This document shows, piece by piece, positions 381 through 36,350 of a stretch of 64,000 nt of DNA. Source of the stretch: an uncultured bacterium (GTDB taxonomy: Bacteria > Auribacterota > Auribacteria > Auribacterales > Auribacteraceae); the NCBI GenBank assembly GCA_964451165.1, contig CAYVGJ010000002.1, positions 97,338 through 161,337 on the forward strand. The letters are read 5' to 3'. A program made the position numbers and the translations under genes. The notes under the pieces are model-generated. The model did no database searches and was not told where the DNA came from. It was given only the letters and a program-made list of their open reading frames with translations. Position 1 is the stretch's first letter, and the number at the start of each line of letters is the position of its first letter.

Positions 381-2273
381 ATGCAAAATAAACCCTTATT
401 TAGAAATTACGCAAAAAATTTTCATTCGGAAACAAAACTTGAAAAGACATTTAACGCCATATTGATTTTTTTACTTGGTTTTGTGCTTATTTTTACTCCG
501 CTAAGTTTTGGAACCGTCAATGAACCTTCTTTCTATATCGCTCATATTTCGATACTTGGACTCGTTCTTGTCAGTATATTGAAAATGGCATTTATAAGAA
601 AATTCAAATTAATAAAATCATTTACACTTGTTCCTCTGTTTTTATTTGTTGGATATACTGCTGTACGCTATTTTTTTTCCGATAATCCATATTATTCGAG
701 AATGGAATTTTTAAAAATAATTGATTATTCATTAATTTATCTTGTTATTGTAAATAATTTTCAGAGAAAAAAATATTTTTACTCACTCATATTTCTTACA
801 ATTCTTATCGGATTGTTTTTATCATCATTGGGGATAATACAATATTTCAAAGAGGCAAATAAGGTATATGGAATTGGGTTGGCGAATGAAATTGTAGCTG
901 TGCCAAGTGATGGACATCAAATACACGATGCTCAATCATATTTTGGAATAGTAACTAAACCCAAACCGGAACAATATGGTTTTAGAGCAAGTGGAACTTT
1001 TGTTTGTCCAAACCATTTGGCCGGTTATCTTGAGATGATAATACCGCTTGCTCTTGCTATGAGCATGTTAACACGATTTGTTTTCGGATTCAGGATGCTT
1101 ATAGGATACTCATCACTGCTGATTATTGCTGGATGGGTATTGACGTTTTCAAGAGGCGGATGGATTGCGGGAATTGTGATGTTAATAACTTTTATCATAT
1201 TATCATATCTAAGAGGTGAAGCGCGTAGCGAAAATAGATGGATATTACCTATGGTAATAATTATTATAGCGTTAATATCAATCGGTATATTTGTAAAACC
1301 GATTCAAAAGAGATTGTTAGAAATTTCTCCTACCGGTGATGCCAGTTCTGCAAGCAGATTAAAAATATGGTCTGACACAATTCCAATGATTAAAGATAAA
1401 CTTTTCTTTGGTTATGGTCCCGGTGGCTATGAATGGCATTTCCCTCGGTATAAAAGCCATTCAATTAATCGAAAAGTAACATATACCCATAATGATTATT
1501 TAAATGCCCTTGCCGATTACGGTGTCTTCGGAACATTAATAATATTGTTTTTTATTGTGTTGTTGTTTATGAAATCAAGAAAGATTCCTGAATTTTTTGA
1601 ACATCCTGATACTCAAGCATTGATGGTGGGTTGTTTATCTGCCGTTGTCGTTGTTTTGTTCCATGCGTTCTTTGATTTCAATAATCATATATACAGTAAC
1701 GCTCTTTTATTCGTTGTAATATGTGGTATTTACATAAGTGTTGTCAGTAATGTCGAAAATGAAGAAGAGGCATATTGGAAATTTGACAAGTTAAATAATA
1801 ATATATTCATGTTAATTTTTGTAGGGATCATTCTTGTCGGGATAATTATCTCTGGTATTATTCAGGCTGGAAAATTATTTTTATCTGAGGCTTATTTTCA
1901 ACAGGGGTATGCTCTTCAATACCAGATATTGTGGAATGAAGCGTCAAAAAAATATGAAATAGCGCAAAAATACGATCCGAAAAATCCGAATATTTATGGA
2001 AAATTGGCTGAGGTTTTAAGTGCTCAAAATTTATTTAGAATTGGCATCGATAATAATCAAGCGATAAATTATTATGATACAGCTTTAAAATACAACCCTT
2101 ATGAAAGTGATTTTCTTTTTAAAAAGGCGCTTCTTCTAAAACGTGAAAGAAAATTTAAAGAAGCATCGGATGTAATTGGAAAAGCAATTTCACAAGAACC
2201 GACTAATGAATCATATAGAGTGGAATATAAAAAATTAGACATCATTCTGCAGAGAAATAAATCCGCGTTTTAA
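381..2273 (+). CDS. O-antigen ligase (Wzy_C)-like polytopic membrane protein with C-terminal TPR repeats
   Basis: Multiple TM helices. The Wzy_C signature FSRGGWIAGIVM and the following YGPGGYEW...THNDYLNALADYGVFG loop are present. The C-terminal ~130 aa have TPR-like repeats (YFQQGYALQYQ..., AINYYDTALKYNPYESDF...). Confidence 0.6.
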   Translation: MQNKPLFRNYAKNFHSETKLEKTFNAILIFLLGFVLIFTPLSFGTVNEPSFYIAHISILGLVLVSILKMAFIRKFKLIKSFTLVPLFLFVGYTAVRYFFSDNPYYSRMEFLKIIDYSLIYLVIVNNFQRKKYFYSLIFLTILIGLFLSSLGIIQYFKEANKVYGIGLANEIVAVPSDGHQIHDAQSYFGIVTKPKPEQYGFRASGTFVCPNHLAGYLEMIIPLALAMSMLTRFVFGFRMLIGYSSLLIIAGWVLTFSRGGWIAGIVMLITFIILSYLRGEARSENRWILPMVIIIIALISIGIFVKPIQKRLLEISPTGDASSASRLKIWSDTIPMIKDKLFFGYGPGGYEWHFPRYKSHSINRKVTYTHNDYLNALADYGVFGTLIILFFIVLLFMKSRKIPEFFEHPDTQALMVGCLSAVVVVLFHAFFDFNNHIYSNALLFVVICGIYISVVSNVENEEEAYWKFDKLNNNIFMLIFVGIILVGIIISGIIQAGKLFLSEAYFQQGYALQYQILWNEASKKYEIAQKYDPKNPNIYGKLAEVLSAQNLFRIGIDNNQAINYYDTALKYNPYESDFLFKKALLLKRERKFKEASDVIGKAISQEPTNESYRVEYKKLDIILQRNKSAF

Positions 2274-2291
2274 AAATTTCAAAGGTAATAG

Positions 2292-3434
2292 ATGAAAACT
2301 CAAAAAATGAAAATTGCCATGATCGGACAAAAAGGTATTCCGGCTATTTATGGCGGTGTGGAGCGACATGTTGAGGAAATTTCGCGCAGGCTTGTCGAAA
2401 AAGGACATGATGTCACTGTTTATAGCCGCCCATACTATATGAAAGAGAATAGTTATAATAGCGATGAATTAAATGGTGTAAAAATAAAAGTTGTTCCAAC
2501 AATAAAAAGCAAACATTTGGACGCAATCGTTCATTGTTTTATATCATCCGTTGACTCAATTTTTAAAAATTATGATATTATTCATTATCATGCGATTGGC
2601 CCATCGACATTATCATTTTTACCGCGGATAAAAAACTCAAAATCCGTTGTTACTGTCCACGGTCTTGATTGGCAGAGAAAAAAATGGAATAAATTCGCTT
2701 CATTATTTTTGCAATTCGGCGAAAAATCCTCATATTATTTTCCAAATAAAACAATTGTTGTATCAAAAACACTTAAAAAGTATTATGACGGGAAATATAA
2801 CGCTGATGTTTCTTATATTCCCAATGGAGTAAATTTGCCGGTTCTAAATAGCCCTGATATTATTAAAAAGAAATATAATCTGGATAAAGATTCATATATT
2901 GTGTTTATAAGCAGGCTGGTACCTGAAAAAGGATGCCATTATTTGATTGAAGCCTATAAGCAAATCAAAACCGATAAAAAACTTTTAATAGTTGGCGGGT
3001 CAAGCCATTCGGACGATTATGTAAAAACAATTAAAGAAATGGCAAGAGATGATAAGCGGATTTTGTTTACCGGGAATGTCTATGGCCAGGAATTAAACGA
3101 ATTATTTTCCAATGCCTATATATTTATACTTCCGTCAGAAATGGAAGGATTGCCTATAGTTATACTTGAAGCGCTTAGTTTCGGTAAATGTGTACTCGCA
3201 AGCGATATATCGGAAAATATGGAGGTAATTGCGCCTTTCGGCAAAGATGAGTATGGATTCAGTTTCGAGAACAAAAATATAAAGAGTCTGAGAGAAAAAA
3301 TAGAATTACTTATAAATAATCCCGAAAATGTTGAGTCCATGTGCTCAAATTCAATCGATTATGTAAAAACAAATTATAACTGGGATTCCGTTGCCGACCA
3401 GACTGAAAAAATATATTTATCTATGATAAAATAA
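2292..3434 (+). CDS. Glycosyltransferase family 4 (GT-B, group 1)
   Basis: The C-terminal motif PSEMEGLPIVILEALSFGKCVLASD is the E-x7-E GT4 signature. An SD-like aaagg precedes the ATG. Confidence 0.7.
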   Translation: MKTQKMKIAMIGQKGIPAIYGGVERHVEEISRRLVEKGHDVTVYSRPYYMKENSYNSDELNGVKIKVVPTIKSKHLDAIVHCFISSVDSIFKNYDIIHYHAIGPSTLSFLPRIKNSKSVVTVHGLDWQRKKWNKFASLFLQFGEKSSYYFPNKTIVVSKTLKKYYDGKYNADVSYIPNGVNLPVLNSPDIIKKKYNLDKDSYIVFISRLVPEKGCHYLIEAYKQIKTDKKLLIVGGSSHSDDYVKTIKEMARDDKRILFTGNVYGQELNELFSNAYIFILPSEMEGLPIVILEALSFGKCVLASDISENMEVIAPFGKDEYGFSFENKNIKSLREKIELLINNPENVESMCSNSIDYVKTNYNWDSVADQTEKIYLSMIK

Positions 3435-3441
3435 AAGATAA

Positions 3442-4461
3442 TCAGATTTCTCTGCCTTTATACATCTTTGTATAATATTGCTGATATTCACCGCTGGTAC
3501 ATTCATTTACCCATTCTTTATGCTCAATATACCATTTTACGGTTTCTTTCAATCCGTCGCTAAAATTGTATGATGGTTCCCAGCCAAGCTCATTTTTGAT
3601 TTTCGATGAATCTATCGCGTATCTAAAATCATGGCCAAGCCTGTCTTTGACAAACTGGATGAGTGTATCGGGTTTAGAAAGGATACTTAGAATTTCTTTT
3701 ACAATATTTATATTTTCCCACTCATTTCCTCCACCGATATTATATATTTCGCCAATTTTACCTTTATGTAATACGCAATCGATAGCGCTACAATGATCCT
3801 TAACGTGAATCCAATCGCGAATATTTTTACCTGTACCGTAAACAGGAAGTTTTTTATCCTGAAGCGCGTTACAAATCATAAGAGGAATAAGTTTTTCGGG
3901 AAATTGATATGACCCATAATTGTTTGAACAACGTGTTATCAGGACAGGTAAACCGAAGGTCTTATAAAATGATCTGGTAATCAGGTCGGCGCTTGTTTTA
4001 CTTGCTGAATAAGGGCTGTTTGGGGAAAGGGGAGTGGATTCAGTGAATTTGCCAGTCGCTCCAAGCGAGCCATAAACTTCATCCGTCGATATTTGAACAA
4101 ATCTTTCAATTCCATATGCTTTTGCCGCTTCAAGCAAAGTAAGGGTACCAGTAACATTGGTTTCAATAAAAACTTCCGAACCCAAAATGCTTCTGTCAAC
4201 ATGCGATTCAGCCGCGAAATTTATAATGGAATCAATTTTATATTCCTTTAAAATGTAGGAAACAAGCTCGAAATTTTTGATATTTCCCTTTATGAAAAAA
4301 TAACGCGGATTCTTCTCGATATCAATAAGATTCAATAAATTACCCGCGTAAGTCAGGTTATCCAGATTTACAACATTATAATCCTTATAATTTTCAAGAA
4401 TAAAGTGAACAAAATTTGAACCGATAAATCCGGCACCGCCAGTGATTAATAAATTATTCAT
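3442..4461 (-). CDS. rfbB: dTDP-glucose 4,6-dehydratase (RmlB/RfbB). The start was moved from the track TTG (4497) to the ATG at 4461, which has a strong SD (AAAAGGAGA).
   Basis: The N-terminus MNNLLITGGAGFIGSNFV has the Rossmann GxxGxxG. The catalytic region ...ISTDEVYG...YSASKTSADL... and the length are typical of RmlB. Confidence 0.85.
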   Translation of the reverse strand: MNNLLITGGAGFIGSNFVHFILENYKDYNVVNLDNLTYAGNLLNLIDIEKNPRYFFIKGNIKNFELVSYILKEYKIDSIINFAAESHVDRSILGSEVFIETNVTGTLTLLEAAKAYGIERFVQISTDEVYGSLGATGKFTESTPLSPNSPYSASKTSADLITRSFYKTFGLPVLITRCSNNYGSYQFPEKLIPLMICNALQDKKLPVYGTGKNIRDWIHVKDHCSAIDCVLHKGKIGEIYNIGGGNEWENINIVKEILSILSKPDTLIQFVKDRLGHDFRYAIDSSKIKNELGWEPSYNFSDGLKETVKWYIEHKEWVNECTSGEYQQYYTKMYKGREI

Positions 4462-5931: not shown

Positions 5932-7289
5932 TGACATCCAATAATCCGAGAATCATCATAATCGGCGCCGGGCCAACGGGTCTTGGCGCCGCGTACTATT
6001 TGCGCAAAATAAGGTATAATAACTGGTTTATCTATGAAAAAGATAACCATGCCGGTGGTTTATCATCAAGTATAATTGATAACAATGGTTTTACCTGGGA
6101 TCATGGCGGACATGTAATTTTCTCGCATTACAAGTTCTTTGATGAAATAATTGAATTTTCGTGTAAAAAAAATATTTTGTCTCACAATAGATACGCCTTT
6201 GCATATATGTTTGATCGGCTGGTTCCATATCCTGTACAAAACAATATTAGATATTTGCCCGATGCTGTTATTTTGGATTGTTTATTCGGGTTGATAGACA
6301 GAAAATATGAAACAAAGCCTGAAAATTTTAAGCAATGGATCGATTCGGTTTTCGGCAAAGGTTTAGCCGAATATTTTATGTTGCCGTATAACCGCAAAGT
6401 CTGGAGCACGAATCCGGAAGAAATGGGATTCGGCTGGATTGGTGAAAGAGTAAGTGTAATTGATATAAAACATGTGCTCAAAAATATAATTCTAAAACAA
6501 GATGATAATGGATGGGGGCCGAACAGTAAGTTTGTTTTTCCAGAAAAGGGTGGTACTCAGGCAATATTTTCACAGATCGCGTCTCTTGTTAAAGATAACA
6601 TTTCTTTTAAGTCGGAACTTTATAAAATTGATATTAAAAACCGAAAAGTATTTTTTAAATCCGGCAAATCCGATAAATATGATTATTTGATATCTTCTGT
6701 GCCTGTTGATGAATTTGTTAATTATTTGGATGGTAACAATAACATGGACACAATTAAGGAAACTGCCGGAAATTTGGTTTACAACAAAGTAATGGTTACC
6801 GGTATCGGCATTAAAAGAAAGAATAAGCCGGATCGGTCATGGATATACTTTCCGGAACAAAAATTCCCATGGTATAGAGTGACATATTTTTCAAATTATT
6901 CTCCATATAATGTGCCTTCAGATGAATATTTTTCTCTTATGGGAGAGATAAGTTATCCAGCACATTCACAACCGGATGGAGAGACTGATATAATGAAATC
7001 CATTGAATCTTTTGAAAAATGTGCTTTTATTTTAAATAACGATATAAGCCGAATCGAAAGTTTTTATTCAAAACTAATACCAAAAGCTTATCCGGTACCG
7101 ACATTGGAAAGAGACAAAATTTTAAATGAAGTCCAATCGTTTCTTATGTCTAACAACATATTATCACGAGGAAGATTCGGCGGTTGGAAATACGAAGTCG
7201 CGAACATGGATCATTCTGTGATGCAAGGTAAAGAAGCTGTCGATTATATTCTATTTAATAAGTCTGAGGAAACTTATAAATTGACCTGA
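5931..7289 (+). CDS. glf: UDP-galactopyranose mutase homolog of the long (eukaryotic-type) form, FAD-dependent
   Basis: N-terminal FAD fold IIIIGAGPTGLGAAYYL. Motifs that closely resemble fungal/kinetoplastid UGM as I remember it: DHGGHVIFSHYKFFDE, NGWGPNSKFVFPEKGGTQ, SRGRFGGWKYEVANMDHSVMQGKEAVDYI. The start overlaps the upstream stop (TAATG). Confidence 0.55.
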   Translation: MTSNNPRIIIIGAGPTGLGAAYYLRKIRYNNWFIYEKDNHAGGLSSSIIDNNGFTWDHGGHVIFSHYKFFDEIIEFSCKKNILSHNRYAFAYMFDRLVPYPVQNNIRYLPDAVILDCLFGLIDRKYETKPENFKQWIDSVFGKGLAEYFMLPYNRKVWSTNPEEMGFGWIGERVSVIDIKHVLKNIILKQDDNGWGPNSKFVFPEKGGTQAIFSQIASLVKDNISFKSELYKIDIKNRKVFFKSGKSDKYDYLISSVPVDEFVNYLDGNNNMDTIKETAGNLVYNKVMVTGIGIKRKNKPDRSWIYFPEQKFPWYRVTYFSNYSPYNVPSDEYFSLMGEISYPAHSQPDGETDIMKSIESFEKCAFILNNDISRIESFYSKLIPKAYPVPTLERDKILNEVQSFLMSNNILSRGRFGGWKYEVANMDHSVMQGKEAVDYILFNKSEETYKLT

Positions 7290-15417: not shown

Positions 15418-16032
15418 TTAATCAATGTAAAGATTGTTTTCAATTATGAATTCGTTTACTTTTTCAGGCACAAGATATTTTATCGATTCGTTATTTTTTC
15501 TTTTTGCCCTGATAACAGAAGCCGAGACATCAATAAAAGGTGTGTCTACAATATTACTCTTAATCTTTTCTATTATATTTTTCTCAAATGGTAAAGATTC
15601 AATAATTTCAGGTTTAAGATCGAATCCGGTTCTTTTGGCAACAAGTATCGAGAAATCCCGCAATAATATATTTGAATCTTTCCACATATGAATTTCGAGC
15701 AAACTATCCGCTCCAATTATAAAAAATAAATCGGCATCTTTATATTTTTGTACATAATGGGTCATTGTGTCAATAGTATATGAATAACCAGGGCGTTTTA
15801 GCTCGATGTTATCTATCCCGAAATAATCAGTTCCTGATATCGCCAGTTCAACCATTTTATAGCGCAAATCCGCATTTAGCAATTCCTCATTTTTTTTATG
15901 CGGAGGATTGGAATTAGGTACAAATATGAGTTTATCAAGTTTTTTTCTTATAACAATCTCTTGAGCTGGAATTAAATGCCCCATATGAATAGGATTAAAT
16001 GTGCCTCCGAAAATCCCGATCCGTTTGGTCAT
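15418..16032 (-). CDS. nadD: Nicotinate-nucleotide adenylyltransferase
   Basis: The N-terminus IGIFGGTFNPIHMGHL has the (H/T)xGH nucleotidyltransferase motif; length 204 aa. Confidence 0.85.
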   Translation of the reverse strand: MTKRIGIFGGTFNPIHMGHLIPAQEIVIRKKLDKLIFVPNSNPPHKKNEELLNADLRYKMVELAISGTDYFGIDNIELKRPGYSYTIDTMTHYVQKYKDADLFFIIGADSLLEIHMWKDSNILLRDFSILVAKRTGFDLKPEIIESLPFEKNIIEKIKSNIVDTPFIDVSASVIRAKRKNNESIKYLVPEKVNEFIIENNLYID

Positions 16033-16034
16033 GA

Positions 16035-17294
16035 TTATTCTCTTATCTGTCCGCTTCCGGTTACGATATATTTATAGCTTGTCAGTTCATCAAGCCCCAT
16101 TGGGCCCCGGGCATGCAGTTTATCTGTGCTGATGCCTATTTCGGCTCCCATTCCGAATTCGCCGCCATCGGTAAATCTTGTTGAAACATTATGATAAACC
16201 ACAGCCGAATCGACTGAATTTAAAAACAAATTAGCTGTCTGGCAATTTGTTGTCAATATTCCATCAGAATGATGTGACCCGTATTTCTCGATATGATCTA
16301 TCGCTTCTTCAATATTATTTACAACTTTTATTGCCAGAATTAGATCAAGATATTCCTCATACCAATCGTTTTCCGATGCGGGCATTGATTTCGGGCATAG
16401 TTTACGCGTTAGTTCATCTCCGCGTATTTCAACTTTGTTTTTTTCAAGCTCAGAACATACTTTCGGTATGAATTCTTCAGCTATATCTTTATGAATGAGA
16501 AGTTTTTCAATTGCGTTGCAGACACCTGGACGCTGGACTTTAGCGTTTATAATTATTTTTATTGCCATATCCTGATCAAGTTCTTTATCTGCATATAAAT
16601 GACAAACGCCTTTATAATGTTTTATTACAGGTATTGTCGCGTTTTCAGTTACGAATTTTATTAGACCCTCTCCGCCACGTGGTATGATTAGGTCAATATA
16701 TTCATTAAGTTTAAGAAGTTCCGCTACTGCAGACCTCTCTTTTGTGGATATAAGCTGAATCGCGTCTTCAGGCAATCCCACAGATTTAAGCGCATCTTTC
16801 AAAATTTCAGTGAGTACAATATTTGAGTTTACCGATTCTTTTCCACCTCTGAGAATTGTAACGTTACCTGATTTAAGGCATAATGACGCCGAATCGACGG
16901 TTACATTAGGGCGTGATTCGTAAATAATTCCTATAACACCGATTGGAACGCTGACTTTGTTGATATTCATTCCGTTGGGACGTTTCCACTCCGCCAATTT
17001 TCTGCCAACAGGGTCTGGAAGCGTGACAAGGTTGTGTAGCGCTTCAATCATCGAATCTATCCGTTTATCGGTTAGCTCCAGTCGATCAAGCATAGCGCTT
17101 GAAAGGCCGGCTGTTTTGCCTTCTTCTATATCGATTCTGTTTTTTTCTTTAATTTCAGTTCTTCGCAGATCCAGAAGCTCAGCCATTTTTTTAAGCGCCG
17201 AATTTTTTAATTCCGATTCCGCACGATTTAATTTAAATGCCGCTTCACGTGCTTTTTTCGCAATGTTTAGCACGTACTCTTTTATATCATTCAT
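16035..17294 (-). CDS. proA: Glutamate-5-semialdehyde dehydrogenase (gamma-glutamyl phosphate reductase)
   Basis: ALDH-fold protein with the ProA-specific length (419 aa). It is adjacent to proB, and the catalytic Cys region NAIEKLLIH is conserved. Confidence 0.88.
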   Translation of the reverse strand: MNDIKEYVLNIAKKAREAAFKLNRAESELKNSALKKMAELLDLRRTEIKEKNRIDIEEGKTAGLSSAMLDRLELTDKRIDSMIEALHNLVTLPDPVGRKLAEWKRPNGMNINKVSVPIGVIGIIYESRPNVTVDSASLCLKSGNVTILRGGKESVNSNIVLTEILKDALKSVGLPEDAIQLISTKERSAVAELLKLNEYIDLIIPRGGEGLIKFVTENATIPVIKHYKGVCHLYADKELDQDMAIKIIINAKVQRPGVCNAIEKLLIHKDIAEEFIPKVCSELEKNKVEIRGDELTRKLCPKSMPASENDWYEEYLDLILAIKVVNNIEEAIDHIEKYGSHHSDGILTTNCQTANLFLNSVDSAVVYHNVSTRFTDGGEFGMGAEIGISTDKLHARGPMGLDELTSYKYIVTGSGQIRE

Positions 17295-17317
17295 TATAAT
17301 ATCCTCCGTGATTGAGA

Positions 17318-19479
<2,162 letters not shown>

Positions 19480-19725
19480 TTATTGAATAGGATTTACACT
19501 GATTTTACGGTTACTGCTGAACTGAACAATACCGTCAATTAATGCAAAAAGGGTATCATCTTTAGCGCGTTTCACATTATTGCCCGGGAAAAACTTTGTT
19601 CCTCTCTGGCGAACAAGAATACTTCCCGCGCTGACAACCTGCCCTTCATATCTCTTAACTCCAAGACGTTGCGACTGGCTATCCCTGCCGTTTCTCGAAC
19701 TACCCATACCTTTTTTATGCGCCAT
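19480..19725 (-). CDS. rpmA: 50S ribosomal protein L27
   Basis: [51 protein letters not shown] is canonical L27. Confidence 0.9.
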
Positions 19726-19757
19726 TATTGATCCTCCTAAAAAATATATATAATTTA

Positions 19758-20129
19758 TTATAAAGTATCTATATCCGATGTTTCAGCTTTTGGTGTTTCA
19801 ACAATTGTTTTCTTAGATGAAGTATTTATCTTTGTTATCCTAATTTTAGAGTACTGTTGCCTGTGTCCGGTTTTCTTCATGGAACTTTTTCTGCGTTTCA
19901 TTTTAAATACAACAACTTTTTTCCCTTTTTCGGTGCAAATAAGTTCACCTTCCACTGTAGCGCCTTTTACTGTGGGTTGGCCAATCAAAACTTTATCGTC
20001 ACTGTTTATCAGAAGCACATTATCGAAAACGACATTTTTATCAGTCGGCTCATCCATTAGATCAATAAGAACAATCTGGCCTTCAGAAACTTTATATTGT
20101 TTGCCTTTTGCTTCAATCACTGCGAACAT
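19758..20129 (-). CDS. rplU: 50S ribosomal protein L21. The start is placed at [14 protein letters not shown]. It has a C-terminal ~25 aa Lys-rich extension.
   Basis: [25 protein letters not shown]... is the canonical L21 N-terminus, and it sits upstream of rpmA as usual. Confidence 0.8.
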
Positions 20130-20245
20130 AATATTGAAATCCTCCACTATTTTATATATAAAATTAATTTAAATTTCAAAAAGAGTAAATTATATATTTA
20201 TTATAATAAAAGTCAATAAGAAATTATTCTCAAGTGTATTATATT

Positions 20246-21733: not shown

Positions 21734-22075
21734 TCAACCTGGAGGCCATTTGAGAGATCTTGCGCCCAACAGGTGAAAATGAATATGAAACACGGCTTGC
21801 CCTGCGTCAGGACCGCAATTTATAACAACTCTATAACCCGTTTCATTGATTGATTTTTCTTCAGCGAGTTTCGCCGCAACTCGAAGTATATATCCCATCA
21901 ACGAATCGTGTTCTTTATCGAGATCGCTTATAGAGCAGATATGTTCTTTTGGAATTATCAGAATATGAACGGGAGCCTGAGGATGAATATCCTCGAACGC
22001 AAAAACTTTTTCATCTTCATATACTTTCTTCGATGGAATTTCGCCTTTTATAATCTTGCAGAATATACATTCCAT
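21734..22075 (-). CDS. HIT-family (histidine triad) nucleotide hydrolase, HinT-like
   Basis: The N-terminus CIFCKIIKGEIPS and the C-terminal histidine triad HIHFHLLG are present. Confidence 0.8.
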   Translation of the reverse strand: MECIFCKIIKGEIPSKKVYEDEKVFAFEDIHPQAPVHILIIPKEHICSISDLDKEHDSLMGYILRVAAKLAEEKSINETGYRVVINCGPDAGQAVFHIHFHLLGARSLKWPPG

Positions 22076-22086
22076 TTGAAATCTCC

Positions 22087-22650
22087 TTAATTCGCCAATA
22101 TGCTTTGGGCGATAGAATAATAAAAAGTTTCTTTTTTATCTGCGGGCATATTATCGGCCATAAGAACTGCCGAGTATAATTTATGAGAAAAATTAAGTTT
22201 GCTTAAATAATAGTTCATTTGTCTTGCTGAAAACAAATATCCTCTATATATAAATGCTGTTACCCCTTGAAGCAGGATTCCCGCTACCGTAGATATAATT
22301 ACCAGAACAGTACTTTCAATAATGTAATTCGATACTATTATTCCGCTAATAATCAGGACAAATCCGAAAAAGGATATCAATAAAGACATCCGCAAAGATT
22401 TGAAGGCCAATCTTTTGTTTATGATCGAATATTCTTTTAATTCGGCAATGTAATGCTCATAGGATTTTAAAAAATCGCCTCTATTTCCTTCAATCTGTTT
22501 AATAAATACATCGAGTTCTTTAAGAACATTCTCTTCTTCTTTTTTCGATACTTTTTTACTCATGAAAAATAATGAAAATGTAAAAATAGATGCCAGAACT
22601 AAACTTATTATCAATATCGAAATCAAATTTGTAATGTTGGCGATTTCCAT
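22087..22650 (-). CDS. Hypothetical membrane protein (about 4 TM)
   Basis: ORF with hydrophobic segments. No family was recognised. Confidence 0.35.
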   Translation of the reverse strand: MEIANITNLISILIISLVLASIFTFSLFFMSKKVSKKEEENVLKELDVFIKQIEGNRGDFLKSYEHYIAELKEYSIINKRLAFKSLRMSLLISFFGFVLIISGIIVSNYIIESTVLVIISTVAGILLQGVTAFIYRGYLFSARQMNYYLSKLNFSHKLYSAVLMADNMPADKKETFYYSIAQSILAN

Positions 22651-28172: not shown

Positions 28173-28973
28173 ATGAATATTGTGTCGGCAAGCAGGCGAA
28201 CAGATATACCTGCTTTTTACGCGCAATGGTTTATGGATGGTTTAAAAAGAGGGGCGATCGAGTTTATTCATCCGTATTCAGGGCAACGATTGAATGTATC
28301 TTTAAAACCAAACGACGTTATCGCTTTTGTTTTCTGGTCAAAAAATTTCTGCGGGTTTATCGATCATCTCGAGTGGATCAGAAAAGATTATGCATGCGTA
28401 TTTCATTACACGATAAATGAATATCCTCTTGAAATAGAAGGCAATATACCGCTTCTTACCAGAAGGTTGGATTCGTTTAAAAAAATATCGGATATGTTTT
28501 CGCCTGATAACATTATTTGGCGGTATGATCCTATATTATTAACAAAAAATTTCAATATGGATTATCATCTCGCAAAATTTACTGAAATTTCAGGTATTCT
28601 CAAAGGATACACTAAAAAATGCTACACAAGTTTTGTTCAGCTTTACGGAAAGAATAAGGTAATCCTTAGAAATTCAGGAGTAGACGAAAATGAGTCCCAA
28701 AATACAATAAAACTTGATCTAATTAGCAAACTAAAAGGTATTTGTGAATCAAATACGATGGAATTGCTTAATTGTTGTTATCCTTTGCTCAAAGAAGCGG
28801 GTGTGCCTTCCGGAAGCTGTATAGACAAGAAATTGATAGAAAAAATAACAGGTTTAAACCTTAAAGAAATAAAAAAAGCGCCGACAAGAAAATCGTGCGG
28901 ATGTTATAAAAGTATAGATATTGGGACATATTCCACCTGCAAGGGCAAATGTCTTTACTGTTACGCACGATGA
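28173..28973 (+). CDS. DUF1848-like protein with a C-terminal Cys cluster that includes a CxxxCxxC
   Basis: The N-terminus SASRRTDIPAFYAQWFMDGL...VIAFVFWSKN...IIWRYDPI matches my recollection of DUF1848. The C-terminus is ...CGCYKSIDIGTYSTCKGKCLYCYAR (C-x3-C-x2-C). Confidence 0.5.
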   Translation: MNIVSASRRTDIPAFYAQWFMDGLKRGAIEFIHPYSGQRLNVSLKPNDVIAFVFWSKNFCGFIDHLEWIRKDYACVFHYTINEYPLEIEGNIPLLTRRLDSFKKISDMFSPDNIIWRYDPILLTKNFNMDYHLAKFTEISGILKGYTKKCYTSFVQLYGKNKVILRNSGVDENESQNTIKLDLISKLKGICESNTMELLNCCYPLLKEAGVPSGSCIDKKLIEKITGLNLKEIKKAPTRKSCGCYKSIDIGTYSTCKGKCLYCYAR

Positions 28974-32795: not shown

Positions 32796-32977
32796 ATATA
32801 TCCTTCCCTTAATTTTTTTATAAAAATGAAATCATAATTTTTTTTTAATTGAAATGCAAGTCAGAATAATTTAACAAAATATCGTGTATGCGGTATCTAT
32901 ATATTAGGTACAGAAATAATTTTATGTTTTAGGGAAATCTGATATTATAAAATAAAAATCATTTTTGTGAGGTGGAA

Positions 32978-34621
32978 ATGAAAAAGAAAGAGCGAATTAT
33001 TAAAATATTTCATACGGTTTCTTCCGATTTAAATGATGAAAAAGATATTGCCAGTGAAATAGTTAAAAAAATAAATAAAGATAGGGCGAAAAGTCTTCAT
33101 TCAAAATTCGAAATAACTTTTTCCAGTATAGATGAGGAATTACCAGCCGGAGATCAGAATACCCAAATTAATAAAATGATTCAGGAATGTGATATATTTA
33201 TTTTCGGGTTATGGAAAAAATGGAATCTTTACGCATGGAAAATATTATCACCGTTTGAAGAAGAATTTGAAATAGCAAGAAATAAATTTCAAGTTCAAGG
33301 TAAGCCACTTGTAATATGTTATTTTAAAGAAATACCTGACGATATGATTTGCGACCCGGGGGAGCAATTGAAAAAGGTTCTGGAATTTAGGACCAATATA
33401 GAATCATCAAAAAAAGTACTTTATTATAATTACGAAAAGGTTACTCAGTTTTCAAGTATGCTTTATGAATTTCTATGGGAATATCTCGATAACAAAAGCT
33501 ATGATGATATTCTTAATGAAGAGAATGCAAAACGGTTGATCGACATTCCCGATGAAATAATACAGAAAATCAATTTATTTCATAAAAAATATATGGAAAC
33601 AGAGTTTACAGGAAAAGGTGAGCTTTCCAAGACATCCATGGAATTTGCTATGGATGCTTTCAGATGTATAAAGGAATATAAATTTACTCTTGCGCAGGAA
33701 TGTTTCATAAAATCGCTCGAAATGGAGGAAAATCCTTATGTACTTGACGCATATGGTTTAATGCTGATTCAACTGGATTATTTCTTTAAAGCTGAAGAAA
33801 AATTTAACCGGTTGTTACAGATATCCAACTCATACGAAGACGGTATGTTGTTAAAATCTTACGCATATAATAATCTCGGTAATATGTACGAGGTTCTGGA
33901 AGATCTCGATAATGCTTCTAAAATGTATAAAAAAGCGCTTGATATTGACTTACAGCTCAAAAGAAAAGAAGGGATCATATCCAATTATAATAATCTCGGT
34001 ATTATCTACAGAAAACAAAATGAATTTGATAAAGCCGAAGCAATGTATAAAAAAGCTCTTGATGCCGATCTCCATACTGAAAGTACACAAGCTACGGCAT
34101 CCGCTTATGGAAATCTCGGCAATATTTATTTGCTGAAAGATGAACTTGATAAAGCCGAAACAATGTATAAAAAAGCGCTTGATATAGATATGAATCTTTG
34201 GTGTAAAGAAGAAATCGTTACCGATTGTTTTAATTTGGGCAATGTGTATACAAAACGCGGTGATTTTTTGAATGCTGAGGAGATGTATGATAAATCGCTG
34301 GAATTAAGTTCGGAGAATTGGATAAAAAAGGAAATAGCGTCAAATTATTGTTACCTGGCGCGAAGATATGGTACAGACGGTAATCTTGATCGGTCTGAAT
34401 CGTTATATAATAAGGCGCTTGGGTTATCGAGGGAACTCGGCAGTAAAAAAGGGATGGCTTCAATTTATCTTAATCTTGGGATTTTATACGAACACAAAGG
34501 GGATTTTGGCAAAACCAAAGAATTTTGGATTAAATCAGAGGAATATTACAATCAGATGGGAAATGAAAAAGAGGTTAATAAATTAAGGACCTGGATCAGG
34601 GATCTGGACATAAATGAATGA
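32978..34621 (+). CDS. DUF4062 (TIR/deoxyribosyltransferase-like Rossmann domain) N-terminal domain fused to TPR_12-type tetratricopeptide repeats. The start is placed at the ATG at 32978; the track begins at a GTG at 32972.
   Basis: The N-terminus IKIFHTVSSDLNDEKDIASEIVKKINKD...FSSIDEELPAGDQNTQINKMIQECDIFIFGLWKKWN...SPFEEEFEIARNKFQVQGKPLVICYFKEIP follows the DUF4062 consensus as I recall it. About 7 40-aa TPR repeats follow (A[EK]xMYKKALDIDL...), visible also as ~120-bp periodic DNA repeats. Confidence 0.5.
   Translation: MKKKERIIKIFHTVSSDLNDEKDIASEIVKKINKDRAKSLHSKFEITFSSIDEELPAGDQNTQINKMIQECDIFIFGLWKKWNLYAWKILSPFEEEFEIARNKFQVQGKPLVICYFKEIPDDMICDPGEQLKKVLEFRTNIESSKKVLYYNYEKVTQFSSMLYEFLWEYLDNKSYDDILNEENAKRLIDIPDEIIQKINLFHKKYMETEFTGKGELSKTSMEFAMDAFRCIKEYKFTLAQECFIKSLEMEENPYVLDAYGLMLIQLDYFFKAEEKFNRLLQISNSYEDGMLLKSYAYNNLGNMYEVLEDLDNASKMYKKALDIDLQLKRKEGIISNYNNLGIIYRKQNEFDKAEAMYKKALDADLHTESTQATASAYGNLGNIYLLKDELDKAETMYKKALDIDMNLWCKEEIVTDCFNLGNVYTKRGDFLNAEEMYDKSLELSSENWIKKEIASNYCYLARRYGTDGNLDRSESLYNKALGLSRELGSKKGMASIYLNLGILYEHKGDFGKTKEFWIKSEEYYNQMGNEKEVNKLRTWIRDLDINE
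33900..34500 (+). repeat. Intragenic ~120-bp periodic nucleotide repeats encoding TPR units (not CRISPR)
   Basis: Near-identical 26-30-nt cores (gataaagccgaa[ag]caatgtataaaaaagc[gt]cttgat...) at about 33922, 34044 and 34164, spaced 120 nt (40 aa) apart inside the TPR ORF. Confidence 0.7.
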
Positions 34622-35177
34622 CAAAATAAACGAATTTCAATACCGCTATAAATATCCACGCCCGATGGTAACTGTTGACATAGCATTGTTTTCCATTATT
34701 GATTCTGAACCCGCAATTCTTCTTATAAAAAGAGGAGGAAATACTTTTTTCGGATATTGGGCATTACCGGGCGGATTTGTTGATATTGAGGAAGATATAA
34801 AGCAAACGGCACCAAGAGAACTTGAAGAAGAAACAGGTTTAAAGTTCGATCAGTTATATCAGATATTTTGCGTAGGTACTCCCGGAAGAGACCCTCGCGG
34901 TAGAACAATAAGCGTTGTTTATTCGGGTTTTTATGAAGGCAACGAAAAACCGTCAGGTAAATCGGATGCGAAAGAAGCTCAATGGTTCAATATTAATGAA
35001 ATACCGGAGCAATTGGCATTTGATCATTGGGATGTGATTGTTACAGTAATAAAAAGATGGATATATGAATTCAATAATCCATCTCTGGATCCATGCCTGA
35101 TGAAATATAAAGATTCTTTTATAGCCGCTACAAAAAAATACGCAGATGTATCACTCGGATTCGGGTTAAAGTTATGA
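34614..35177 (+). CDS. NUDIX hydrolase
   Basis: The Nudix box GYWALPGGFVDIEEDIKQTAPRELEEETGL (GX5EX7REUXEEXGU). There is an 8-nt overlap with the upstream TPR gene. Confidence 0.75.
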   Translation: MNDKINEFQYRYKYPRPMVTVDIALFSIIDSEPAILLIKRGGNTFFGYWALPGGFVDIEEDIKQTAPRELEEETGLKFDQLYQIFCVGTPGRDPRGRTISVVYSGFYEGNEKPSGKSDAKEAQWFNINEIPEQLAFDHWDVIVTVIKRWIYEFNNPSLDPCLMKYKDSFIAATKKYADVSLGFGLKL

Positions 35178-35182
35178 TCCTA

Positions 35183-35800
35183 TTAAATTAGAAAAGTTAT
35201 TATCCTCATAAAAAAATCACGGATAATATCTATTATTCCATCAAGTGCGCCAATATAAAGAAGAGCAAACAAAATAATTATACCGAAACGTTCTATTTTA
35301 TTAAGAAATCTTCTTATCGAAGGAGGCGATATTACTGATAACACTCTTGAACCGTCAAGAGGTGGTATCGGTAGAATATTGAACGAAGCGAGAATCAGAT
35401 TTATCTGAGCCATTAATATAAGAGAATATATTTTTGGTGAATCAATATAGGGTCCGACTAGTTTAAATAATAACAACGCGATAAACGCGAGAACAAAATT
35501 AGTAAAAACTCCTGCCAGCGAACACATAATAATTCCCATTTTCTGGGGCCGTAAATTCGAATAGTTTATATGAACAGGTTTTGCCCAGCCGAATCCGAAA
35601 ATAAGAAACAACGCTGTTCCGGCCGGATCGAGATGTTTGAAAGGATTTAATGAAAACCGACCCATATTTTTTGCTGTATCGTCCCCGAATTTCGCCGCGC
35701 ATACGGCATGAGCTAATTCATGAAGAACAAGGGAATATAAAAGTGGTATTGCGATTAGTAGAAAAGTTATCGGGTCGTTTAATAATAATTTTAAAAGCAT
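35183..35800 (-). CDS. Site-2 protease (M50) family membrane metalloprotease, short stand-alone form
   Basis: HExxH in TM1 (LVLHELAHAVCAAKFG), a downstream LDG motif in a TM (ILPIPPLDGSRVL), and about 6 TM helices in 205 aa. Confidence 0.7.
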   Translation of the reverse strand: MLLKLLLNDPITFLLIAIPLLYSLVLHELAHAVCAAKFGDDTAKNMGRFSLNPFKHLDPAGTALFLIFGFGWAKPVHINYSNLRPQKMGIIMCSLAGVFTNFVLAFIALLLFKLVGPYIDSPKIYSLILMAQINLILASFNILPIPPLDGSRVLSVISPPSIRRFLNKIERFGIIILFALLYIGALDGIIDIIRDFFMRIITFLI

Positions 35801-35810
35801 AATACCTCAA

Positions 35811-36350
35811 TTAATTTTCACTGATTAAATTTTTCCTCAGAAGTTCTTTTTTAGAAAATACGTAACTTCCAGCAATAATTTTATGAGGGATTAAATTAAG
35901 TTTGGCTCTGCGTGAGATTTCCTGCCGGGTGTATCCGAGCATAATACCGAGTTCTTCACAGGAAATATCATCTTTTAATCTTGCGTAACAGGCTTTTATC
36001 GCGAATCCGAGAGGAGTCTTAACCCATTCGGTCCAATTTATACTGTTTTTCCTGTTATCCGCGGGTGATCTCCAGAGAATAGAGCAAATCATATCACAAG
36101 CCTGCTGTATCATCCATTTTTCTTCTTTGGAATTCAATTTTAATTCTCCCCGGGCGAACTGAAATATTTTACTGATTATGGATTCGATTACAGAATCGAA
36201 TTTATGATCGGAAAGATGCGACTTAAATAAATCCACTGAACTTTCAGGTAAAAAATTTGCCATAAGCCCGCACAAATATTCGGATATGTTTTTCTTGAAT
36301 CTCTCTATTTCTCTTTTTTCAGTTTTTTTATCGATATTTTTTATTTTCAT
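35811..36350 (-). CDS. Hypothetical protein with a C-terminal HTH-like segment
   Basis: The ORF lies immediately upstream of the M50 gene on the same strand. The C-terminus LGYTRQEISRRAKLNLIPHKIIAGSYVFSKKELL looks like a DNA-binding HTH. No family was recognised. Confidence 0.35.
   Translation of the reverse strand: MKIKNIDKKTEKREIERFKKNISEYLCGLMANFLPESSVDLFKSHLSDHKFDSVIESIISKIFQFARGELKLNSKEEKWMIQQACDMICSILWRSPADNRKNSINWTEWVKTPLGFAIKACYARLKDDISCEELGIMLGYTRQEISRRAKLNLIPHKIIAGSYVFSKKELLRKNLISEN

Follow-up and report, generated by a model that had tools for sequence, protein, structure and literature searches.

A NIR (DUF4062)-TPR protein whose gene overlaps a resident Nudix hydrolase gene in an Auribacterota-like bacterium

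The DUF4062 domain, now renamed NIR, is a TIR-like nicotinamide adenine dinucleotide (NAD+) glycohydrolase, which cleaves NAD+ into ADP-ribose and nicotinamide and serves in abortive-infection phage defence (bioRxiv 10.64898/2026.05.01.722283; 10.64898/2026.06.25.731849; 10.64898/2026.09.04.749371). Here we characterize a domain of this type encoded on a 64,000-nucleotide (nt) stretch of contig CAYVGJ010000002.1 from an uncultured bacterium of the Auribacterota (positions 97,338 to 161,337; in the following called the window). It forms the N-terminal part (N-domain) of a 547-amino-acid (aa) protein with TPR repeats, termed NIR-TPR, the gene of which runs into that of a Nudix hydrolase. The original prediction for this locus, made from the letters of the DNA alone, had proposed a nucleotide-signalling or defence module that is not a described named system.

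Descriptions of Swarozyc, Evangelion, Avs2-NIR, Vulcan and Vesta all appeared in 2026, such that this last statement has become outdated for the NIR part of the locus. The Swarozyc protein KpSwz has the catalytic residue E97 and is triggered by the phage portal, while the Evangelion protein Eva01 carries F11 and a catalytic E87-Y88 ‘E-Y’ motif (both bioRxiv 10.64898/2026.05.01.722283; 10.64898/2026.06.25.731849). In Avs2-NIR the catalytic residue is E108. Vulcan consists of one protein, in which a NIR domain with catalytic E98 is combined with HEAT repeats (Le Mouellic et al. 2026, bioRxiv 10.64898/2026.09.04.749371). Vesta comprises the small NIR protein VstA and the alkaline phosphatase VstB; the latter is dispensable for defence, and the pairing is strongly conserved across genomes. 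Nudix or macro partners are not mentioned in the three 2026 preprints cited above. For the NIR domains of NWD1, NWD2 and NPHP3 no NADase activity was detectable, and a functional diversification has been suggested. NARP1 uses ADP-ribose together with nicotinamide and impairs NIR defence.

For the locus in the window we favour, at slightly better than even confidence, a Vulcan-like single-chain NIR-TPR sensor/effector, with which a resident Nudix hydrolase of the ADP-ribose type is co-expressed through an operon capture restricted to two species.

Identity of the N-terminal domain and its fusion to TPR repeats

Scans of the full-length NIR-TPR protein against Pfam and PADLOC returned TPRs only, and the DUF4062 profile PF13271 gave nothing at E ≤ 0.01. 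The N-domain (aa 1-236) was therefore scanned alone. PF13271 then aligned over profile positions 4-80 of 82 with E = 0.0067, but the score of 17.0 bits did not reach the gathering score of 24.7. A much clearer picture was obtained from family profiles. A word-indexed search with the single sequence found 4 short homologs of 32-35% identity, all annotated as PF13271 and having the exact DPGEQLKKVLEFR in common with the query. From the N-domain and these 4 homologs a profile was built, which collected 209 proteins, with few exceptions PF13271, from the word-indexed database. When 1.84 billion cluster representatives were scanned exhaustively with HMMER, 11,924 of them matched at E ≤ 1e-3, including 1,182 with E ≤ 1e-30; RefSeq plasmid proteins annotated as ‘DUF4062 domain-containing protein’ matched at 6e-10. 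When a leave-one-out profile was made from 120 homologs with the window sequence excluded, the N-domain scored 156 bits with all motifs in register. The profile homology to genuine PF13271 proteins is thus significant, and the hit spectrum of the N-domain equals that published for the DUF4062 domain of PsAvs2. The original prediction had read a DUF4062, TIR-like domain from a residue pattern; this holds at the level of profiles, while the Pfam model by itself stays below its cut-off.

The same assignment follows from the fold. A model of the N-domain, built with AlphaFold2 (AF2) on the family alignment (predicted local distance difference test, pLDDT, 88.4; predicted template modelling score, pTM, 0.85), contains five parallel strands in beta/alpha arrangement followed by a long helix, which is compatible with the TIR-like class, as had been anticipated. 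By profile and fold evidence the N-domain of the window belongs to the DUF4062/NIR family and has a TIR-like fold.

The alternative would be a chance likeness of motifs on a generic flavodoxin-like fold that is joined to a TPR protein. Such a view could appeal to the PF13271 score of 17 versus 24.7 bits, to a PDB sequence search with the N-domain that returned nothing meaningful, and to a Foldseek comparison with the PDB, in which the matches were weak and flavodoxins were mixed with TIR domains; the April-2026 PDB copy used with Foldseek held no solved DUF4062 structure. The leave-one-out score with its motifs in register, the 1,182 representatives matched at E ≤ 1e-30 by the N-domain profile and the PF13271 annotation of nearly all homologs already refute it, and we find it hardly credible. 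A domain that was unannotated and sub-threshold is thereby placed in the newly characterised NIR NADase family.

The remainder of the protein is a TPR array. In Pfam it matched TPR_12 with 4.5e-44 over approximately aa 259-540 and TPR_MalT with 6.5e-15, and reading the repeats from the sequence gave 6 strong and 2 degenerate ones of 40 aa each. HEAT_2 was not matched in the Pfam scan, which returned TPR families only. No NTPase domain was found by Pfam, NCBIfam and PADLOC scans including the P-loop families, and the linker between the N-domain and the TPRs comprises only ~50 residues. A hidden STAND NTPase was rejected, as the linker is too short and matches are absent. The architecture of DUF4062 and TPRs without an NTPase, as originally proposed, was thus confirmed. 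A protein identical to NIR-TPR is also encoded on public metagenome contigs.

Comparison with the family reveals that such fusions are not confined to the window. The best-scoring NIR representatives are mostly ~800-aa proteins of DUF4062 and HEAT_2, and a minority combines DUF4062 with TPRs, for example P0129 (577 aa), P0130 (419 aa) and P0157 (500 aa). Among 96 loci of NIR relatives (16 from species-representative genomes and 80 from metagenomes), ~25 hold a NIR-TPR open reading frame (ORF) of 430-700 aa. Given these NIR-HEAT and NIR-TPR proteins, the fusion of a NIR domain straight to an alpha-solenoid, with no STAND module, is a recurrent design, of which the window protein is the TPR form. 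NTPase-free NIR-TPR fusions hence recur beside the published NIR-HEAT design of Vulcan.

Some relatives showed further variations. The close relative P0157 continues after its NIR-TPR part with a proprotein-convertase P-domain, and P0119, likewise a close relative, is a DUF4062 protein that also contains PF01950. At locus L009 (292-3905) the adjacent ORFs 292-1983 and 1944-3905 both match NIR-TPR of the window strongly, so that this MAG may hold a tandem pair or a partner rich in TPRs. On contig_32802 of a Nitrospirota metagenome-assembled genome (MAG; L003/L018) a DDE_3 transposase has inserted into a NIR gene at 6001-6411 and left it with 136 aa; this truncated gene sits in an island with many genes of toxin-antitoxin and abortive-infection type, namely ParE, AbiEi/AbiEii, BrnT/BrnA and HepT/MNT. 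The closest TPR-bearing homolog (39% identity) is represented by a single locus in two assemblies, L001 and L002: it has 326 aa with TPRs in L001 (P0031), but in L002, an NCBI MAG, it ends up with 195 aa and no TPRs (P0037). A frameshift, strain variation or a difference between the assemblies would account for this. A Nudix neighbour is absent from P0031 as well as from P0037.

The Nudix gene and its ancestral surroundings

NIR-TPR and Nudix share 8 nt, ATGAATGA, at their junction: one frame ends with ...GAC ATA AAT GAA TGA, and the other begins with ATG AAT GAC. The start of the Nudix gene at 34614 is backed by homology, since orthologs conserve residues 7-17 (FQYRYKYPRP), a stretch that lies 5' of the next Met. 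PDB homologs of the enzyme align from residue 13 onward. The overlap of stop and start codon was therefore correctly recognized from the beginning.

The same applies to the nature of the downstream enzyme, which had been called a canonical NUDIX hydrolase. Pfam assigned it to PF00293 with 1.5e-19 (70.8 bits versus a cut-off of 21.1), and its Nudix box, G54-x5-E60-x7-R68-E69-L-E-E72-E73-T-G75-L76, is intact and invariant in orthologs. The best matches were the NrtR Nudix domain of NCBIfam (2.7e-27), NadM-Nudix and the PDB entries 2fml, 3gz5/3gz6/3gz8 and 2qjo. Given these matches, ADP-ribose would be a reasonable substrate. With the NrtR/NadM-Nudix clade the enzyme has the intact Nudix box and the RDPRG motif in common. 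NrtR carries, however, a winged-helix DNA-binding domain and NadM an NMNAT, whereas the Nudix of the window stands alone with a short and variable C-terminal tail. As an NrtR regulator it does not qualify: the 187-aa protein lacks a winged helix-turn-helix domain and scored 95.8 versus a cut-off of 400 in NCBIfam. The extra domains are present, unlike in the window protein, in the 323-aa homolog P0263. The C-terminal 40 residues of the Nudix are not conserved among the window and loci L105, L108 and L111.

The closest ortholog of the Nudix (P0262, ~59-61% identity) belongs to a sister species, in which it is preceded by a 547-aa NIR-TPR ortholog of 63% identity with the same ATGAATGA overlap. 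Genes for M50, the 179-aa protein, macro, B12-radical-SAM and GT9 follow as in the window, and different genes are found 5' of NIR-TPR. In six related lineages an ortholog of the Nudix holds the same place on the chromosome, but NIR-TPR is missing: one species with two Candidatus Auribacterota MAGs, the proteins of which are identical (L108/L109), and L110, L111, L112, L113 and L114. Their conserved gene order is rsfS-nadD-proA-proB-obg-L27-L21 (-), Nudix (+), sometimes a Na/Pi transporter, M50 (-), a 179/205-aa gene (-) and macro (+). Among the lineages examined, every relative with a sequenced flank has M50 and the 179-aa gene in this order. In the relatives the distance from L21 to Nudix amounts to 100-1000 bp. 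In the window, where the left-hand conserved block occupies 15418-20147, ~14.5 kb of lineage-specific genes with NIR-TPR as the last one lie between L21 and Nudix. Since the block is conserved without NIR-TPR in six lineages and the window contains a variable segment, the ancestral genes of the locus are Nudix, M50, the 179-aa gene and macro, and NIR-TPR joined them as an accessory gene that now borders on Nudix.

The genes also differ in how far they have diverged. Between the window and the sister species the identity is 49% for the NIR domain, 73% for the TPR array and 59% for Nudix, but 81-87% for M50 (83%), the 179-aa protein (87%), macro and radical SAM. Synonymous sites are saturated in this comparison (proportion of synonymous differences, pS, ~0.7), such that the ratio of nonsynonymous to synonymous rates (dN/dS) is not usable and only relative dN and identity were used. 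The Nudix evolves faster than its neighbours in every lineage pair compared (57-59% versus 74-87% identity), and it does so also in lineages without NIR-TPR (57% versus 74-84% for the syntenic neighbours). Its rate is therefore uninformative with regard to co-evolution, and the notion that the speed of the Nudix reflects an adaptation to NIR was rejected.

The same data speak against one conflict module made up of NIR-TPR, Nudix, macro, M50 and an ‘HTH’ protein. The block to which these partners belong is ancestral and lacks the DUF4062 gene in the six lineages. Macro, M50 and the 179-aa protein were rejected as system components, as their synteny is kept without NIR-TPR and their evolution is slow; they are resident genes unrelated to NIR-TPR. 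Pfam supported two of the labels (Peptidase_M50 2.6e-13, Macro 2.2e-39). The 179-aa protein had no match in Pfam, NCBIfam or PADLOC, and its earlier ‘HTH’ label could not be verified. The M50 and 179-aa genes form a tightly conserved pair with the same order in the relatives.

A conserved linkage between NIR homologs and Nudix, which the module hypothesis implied, was not observed either. Searching the neighbours at the 96 loci of NIR relatives with phmmer at 1e-3 and with a 120-sequence hidden Markov model (HMM) of the Nudix family at E ≤ 1 revealed neither a Nudix nor a macro gene at any locus (0 of the 16 genome loci, 0 of the 80 metagenome loci). Homologs of the M50 and the 179-aa protein were likewise absent from all 96. 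According to Pfam, the 122 immediate neighbours contain no recurrent partner family, the maximum being 2 members per family; genes of defence and of mobile elements (TIR_2, PIN, AAA_21, HSDR_N, BglII, integrase and TrwC) are scattered among them. The lack of a recurrent neighbour family fits NIR relatives that behave as single-gene units. The NIR-TPR/Nudix pair is known in the window and in one sister species only. This coupling is a local operon capture specific to two species and not a conserved two-gene system. A pair that is limited to two species and stands among ancestral housekeeping genes does not constitute evidence for a new defence system.

In the preferred reading, a TIR-like NAD+ glycohydrolase domain would be fused straight to a TPR alpha-solenoid within one chain that has no STAND NTPase. 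By analogy, the TPR array would bind a trigger, upon which the protein would oligomerise. The accessory gene, located at the right edge of the lineage-variable segment of an Auribacterota-like bacterium, would have been joined to the resident housekeeping Nudix by the 8-nt overlap in the common ancestor of the two species. Due to this overlap the Nudix would now be co-expressed with NIR-TPR, and it would plausibly clear ADP-ribose to AMP and ribose-5-phosphate. The production of ADP-ribose from NAD+, as originally suggested, agrees with experiments on other DUF4062 proteins, from which the activity of the window protein itself would be predicted; the Nudix belongs to an ADP-ribose-binding clade. 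The locus would then exemplify the capture of a NADase gene just ahead of an enzyme that clears ADP-ribose.

A true two-gene defence unit would assign a more active part to the Nudix: by destroying ADP-ribose it would block NAD+ rebuilding of the NARP1 type, or it would avert autoimmunity from basal NADase activity. In favour of such a unit, ADP-ribose, the NIR product, represents the class of ligands of the NrtR/NadM-Nudix clade, and the overlap is kept in two species. Also NARP1, which draws on both NIR products to impair the defence, would suit it, as would the precedent of dispensable accessory hydrolases next to NIR/NADase effectors, with an anti-autoimmunity role proposed for VstB and MisB, and a weak match of the PADLOC candidate PDC-S07 to the Nudix (1.5e-7). 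We nevertheless consider it quite improbable. Even at E ≤ 1 with the family HMM no Nudix was detected at the 96 loci, the orthologs in six lineages hold the same position without NIR-TPR, the Nudix evolves equally fast with or without it, and in the only other species with the pair the catalytic Glu is lost (see below). If the unit were real, NAD+ depletion would be irreversible and NARP1-resistant, or uninfected cells would be shielded from basal ADP-ribose; among NADase systems no such counter-counter-defence has so far been described, and the operon would have been caught early in its formation.

Catalytic residues and divergence from the family

Column statistics over 260 family N-domains show that F11 is conserved in 258, E95 in 259 and E96 in all of them. 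The window protein keeps F11, D17, E21, I64, N65, C71-D72, W82, S91, E94-E96-F97 and DPGEQLKKVLEFR. It thus has an N-terminal aromatic residue, F11, as well as an E-aromatic motif, S91-P-F-E-E-E96-F97. Following the published E-aromatic rule, E96, assigned by alignment and followed by F97, is the predicted catalytic residue. The DPGEQLKKVLEFR signature hardly varies within a large DUF4062 subfamily, HEAT-type proteins included; in the AF2 model helix 129-144 starts there, and its role is not discussed in the three NIR preprints.

Several observations weigh against an active sensor/effector in defence. Among the 260 domains the window protein is the sole outlier at seven positions that are >90% conserved. 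Where the family has A13-S14-P15, R22, P60-Q61, G83 and G92, it carries V14, S15, K22, Q60, N61, N83 and P92. The weak, sub-threshold Pfam score is due to these deviations at near-invariant positions. They may also mean impaired catalysis, which renders the catalytic competence of the domain uncertain. The sister ortholog has diverged at the motif itself. It reads SPVEKHYQHA where the family has SGFEEEF, such that both invariant Glu are lost (E95K, E96H), and I64/N65 and E129 are missing as well, yet the gene is full length in several samples. Regarding the surroundings, PADLOC on 25 neighbouring ORFs gave stray single-protein matches only and the adjacent genes are housekeeping genes, so that there is no support for a defence island.

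As the catalytic Glu is lost while the gene is still full length, a non-catalytic role of the NIR domain seems likely in at least the sister species; either NADase activity is being lost in its lineage, or the domain plays a non-catalytic role there. With a NIR domain that is unusually divergent in the window and without the Glu in the sister, NADase function in the lineage of both species is uncertain and may be decaying.

This leads to a second alternative, in which the NIR domain has been exapted. It would no longer hydrolyse NAD+ but serve as an interaction module or NAD+/ADP-ribose-binding module on a TPR scaffold, aiding or regulating the co-translated Nudix in ordinary NAD/ADP-ribose metabolism and not in phage defence. 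The sister ortholog, full length without both Glu and with its TPR array constrained at 73% identity, would be readily explained this way, and so would the off-family residues at seven near-invariant positions of the window protein. The housekeeping context, the published NIR domains of NWD1, NWD2 and NPHP3 that lack detectable NADase activity, and a Nudix overlap kept across saturated synonymous divergence point in the same direction. Exaptation is, however, at odds with the retention of F11, E94-E96-F97, the other signature residues and DPGEQLKKVLEFR in the window and with the variable, accessory slot of the gene; the fast evolution of the NIR domain (49% identity) also fits an arms race. 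Altogether we regard exaptation as the main rival, though less likely, and retain the single-chain sensor/effector as the preferred one. Independent of this choice, an ortholog pair with the catalytic Glu kept in one member and lost in the other offers a way to ask whether NIR drifts to non-catalytic roles, as TIR does in animals.

Features of the locus and comparison with described systems

The positions of the features are collected in Table 1. A scan of the locus for promoters and terminators gave results no better than shuffled sequences. The window contains no tRNA genes, and thus no integration hallmark was found.

Table 1. Positions of NIR-TPR, the Nudix gene and neighbouring features in the window.
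Feature	Position	Strand	Basis and remarks
NIR(DUF4062)-TPR gene	32978..34621	+	ORF list; 547 aa from ATG at 32978
Alternative start of NIR-TPR	GTG at 32972	+	+2 aa, giving 549 aa
NIR/DUF4062 TIR-like N-domain	32978..33526	+	aa 1-183; five-stranded beta/alpha core to ~aa 152, long helix 155-182
Acidic ‘S-x-x-E-E-E-F’ motif (S91-A100)	33248..33277	+	predicted catalytic Glu E96, codon 33263-33265, then F97
Subfamily signature DPGEQLKKVLEFR	33353..33391	+	aa 126-138; (nearly) invariant in alignments; outside the 82-aa Pfam model
TPR array	33683..34618	+	aa ~236-547; ~8 TPR_12-type 40-aa repeats; presumed sensor/oligomerisation part
Overlap of NIR-TPR stop and Nudix start, ATGAATGA	34614..34621	+	8 nt; from the sequence; also in the sister species
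Nudix hydrolase, NrtR/NadM-Nudix (ADP-ribose) clade	34614..35177	+	187 aa; PF00293; box G54-L76 at 34773-34841
M50 protease	35183-35800	-	205 aa, stand-alone; Pfam; ancestral syntenic block, context only
179-aa protein	35811-36350	-	without Pfam match; ancestral syntenic block, context only
Macro-domain gene	36592/36619-37143	+	Pfam; ancestral syntenic block, context only
Lineage-variable segment	20148..32977	.	between the conserved nadD-proA-proB-obg-L27-L21 block and NIR-TPR; context only

The lineage-variable segment, ~12.8 kb that are absent from the relatives, encodes a 457-aa protein, a HIT protein, a 186-aa protein, a 610-aa TPR protein, an M16 peptidase, DUF4186, SprT-like, DUF1848, radical SAM and DUF6873 proteins and an STT3-like oligosaccharyltransferase. 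DUF1848 (28173-28973) matched the PADLOC model ‘RTasDUF1848 (DRT)’ at 2.5e-46, with no reverse transcriptase nearby. Within 21734-22650 (-), the HIT-domain protein (21734-22075) matched ThsC2/ThsC of PADLOC at 2.5e-13. For the 186-aa ORF next to it a cyanobacterial TRADD-N-associated 2-TM domain was returned weakly at E = 0.0016, below the cut-off, and one neighbouring ORF showed a weak MkoA match (4.4e-9).

Compared to described systems, the locus resembles Vesta (VstA and VstB) and Metis (MisA and the HAD phosphatase MisB) in that a putative NADase effector shares an operon with a small-molecule hydrolase, the role of which is perhaps only housekeeping or anti-autoimmunity. The partner in Vesta and Metis is, however, a phosphatase and not a Nudix, and the Vesta pairing is strongly conserved whereas the pairing with Nudix is found in two species only. 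The eukaryotic protein NPHP3 likewise has a DUF4062-like domain together with TPR_12-type repeats, and the TPRs of the window matched TPR_NPHP3 at 5e-13, below the cut-off. It provides a precedent for a non-catalytic NIR domain, having shown no NADase activity in published tests. In contrast to NIR-TPR it is a large NLR-like protein with extra domains, and there is no evidence of direct orthology.

Avs2-NIR and NLR-like STAND proteins combine, as NIR-TPR does, an N-terminal NIR effector with TPR-type sensor repeats at the C-terminus. They contain a central STAND/NACHT/NB-ARC NTPase, while in the window only ~50 residues separate NIR from the TPRs. With KpSwz and Eva01 the window protein has the TIR-like DUF4062 core, F11 and the E-aromatic motif in common; in both cases the five-stranded beta/alpha part is followed by a long helix (‘stalk’), as seen in the AF2 model. 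KpSwz and Eva01 differ from it by short C-terminal auxiliary regions without repeats, sense phage portal or replication proteins and are typically located on defence islands or plasmids, unlike the window gene with its chromosomal housekeeping context.

Vulcan comes closest to the window protein in its design. This likeness is one of architecture. A plasmid tblastn with a HEAT-type relative gave N-domain matches only, in Rhodococcus, Asticcacaulis and cyanobacterial (non-enterobacterial) plasmids, and no tie to the tested Vulcan protein WP_050009967.1. Vulcan has HEAT repeats and ~800 aa, while the window protein has TPR_12 repeats, 547 aa, a much more divergent NIR domain and a gene that overlaps a Nudix. 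In both, an N-terminal NIR domain is fused directly to C-terminal alpha-helical repeats without a STAND NTPase, the (predicted) catalytic Glu is found near position 96-98, and a single gene forms the unit.

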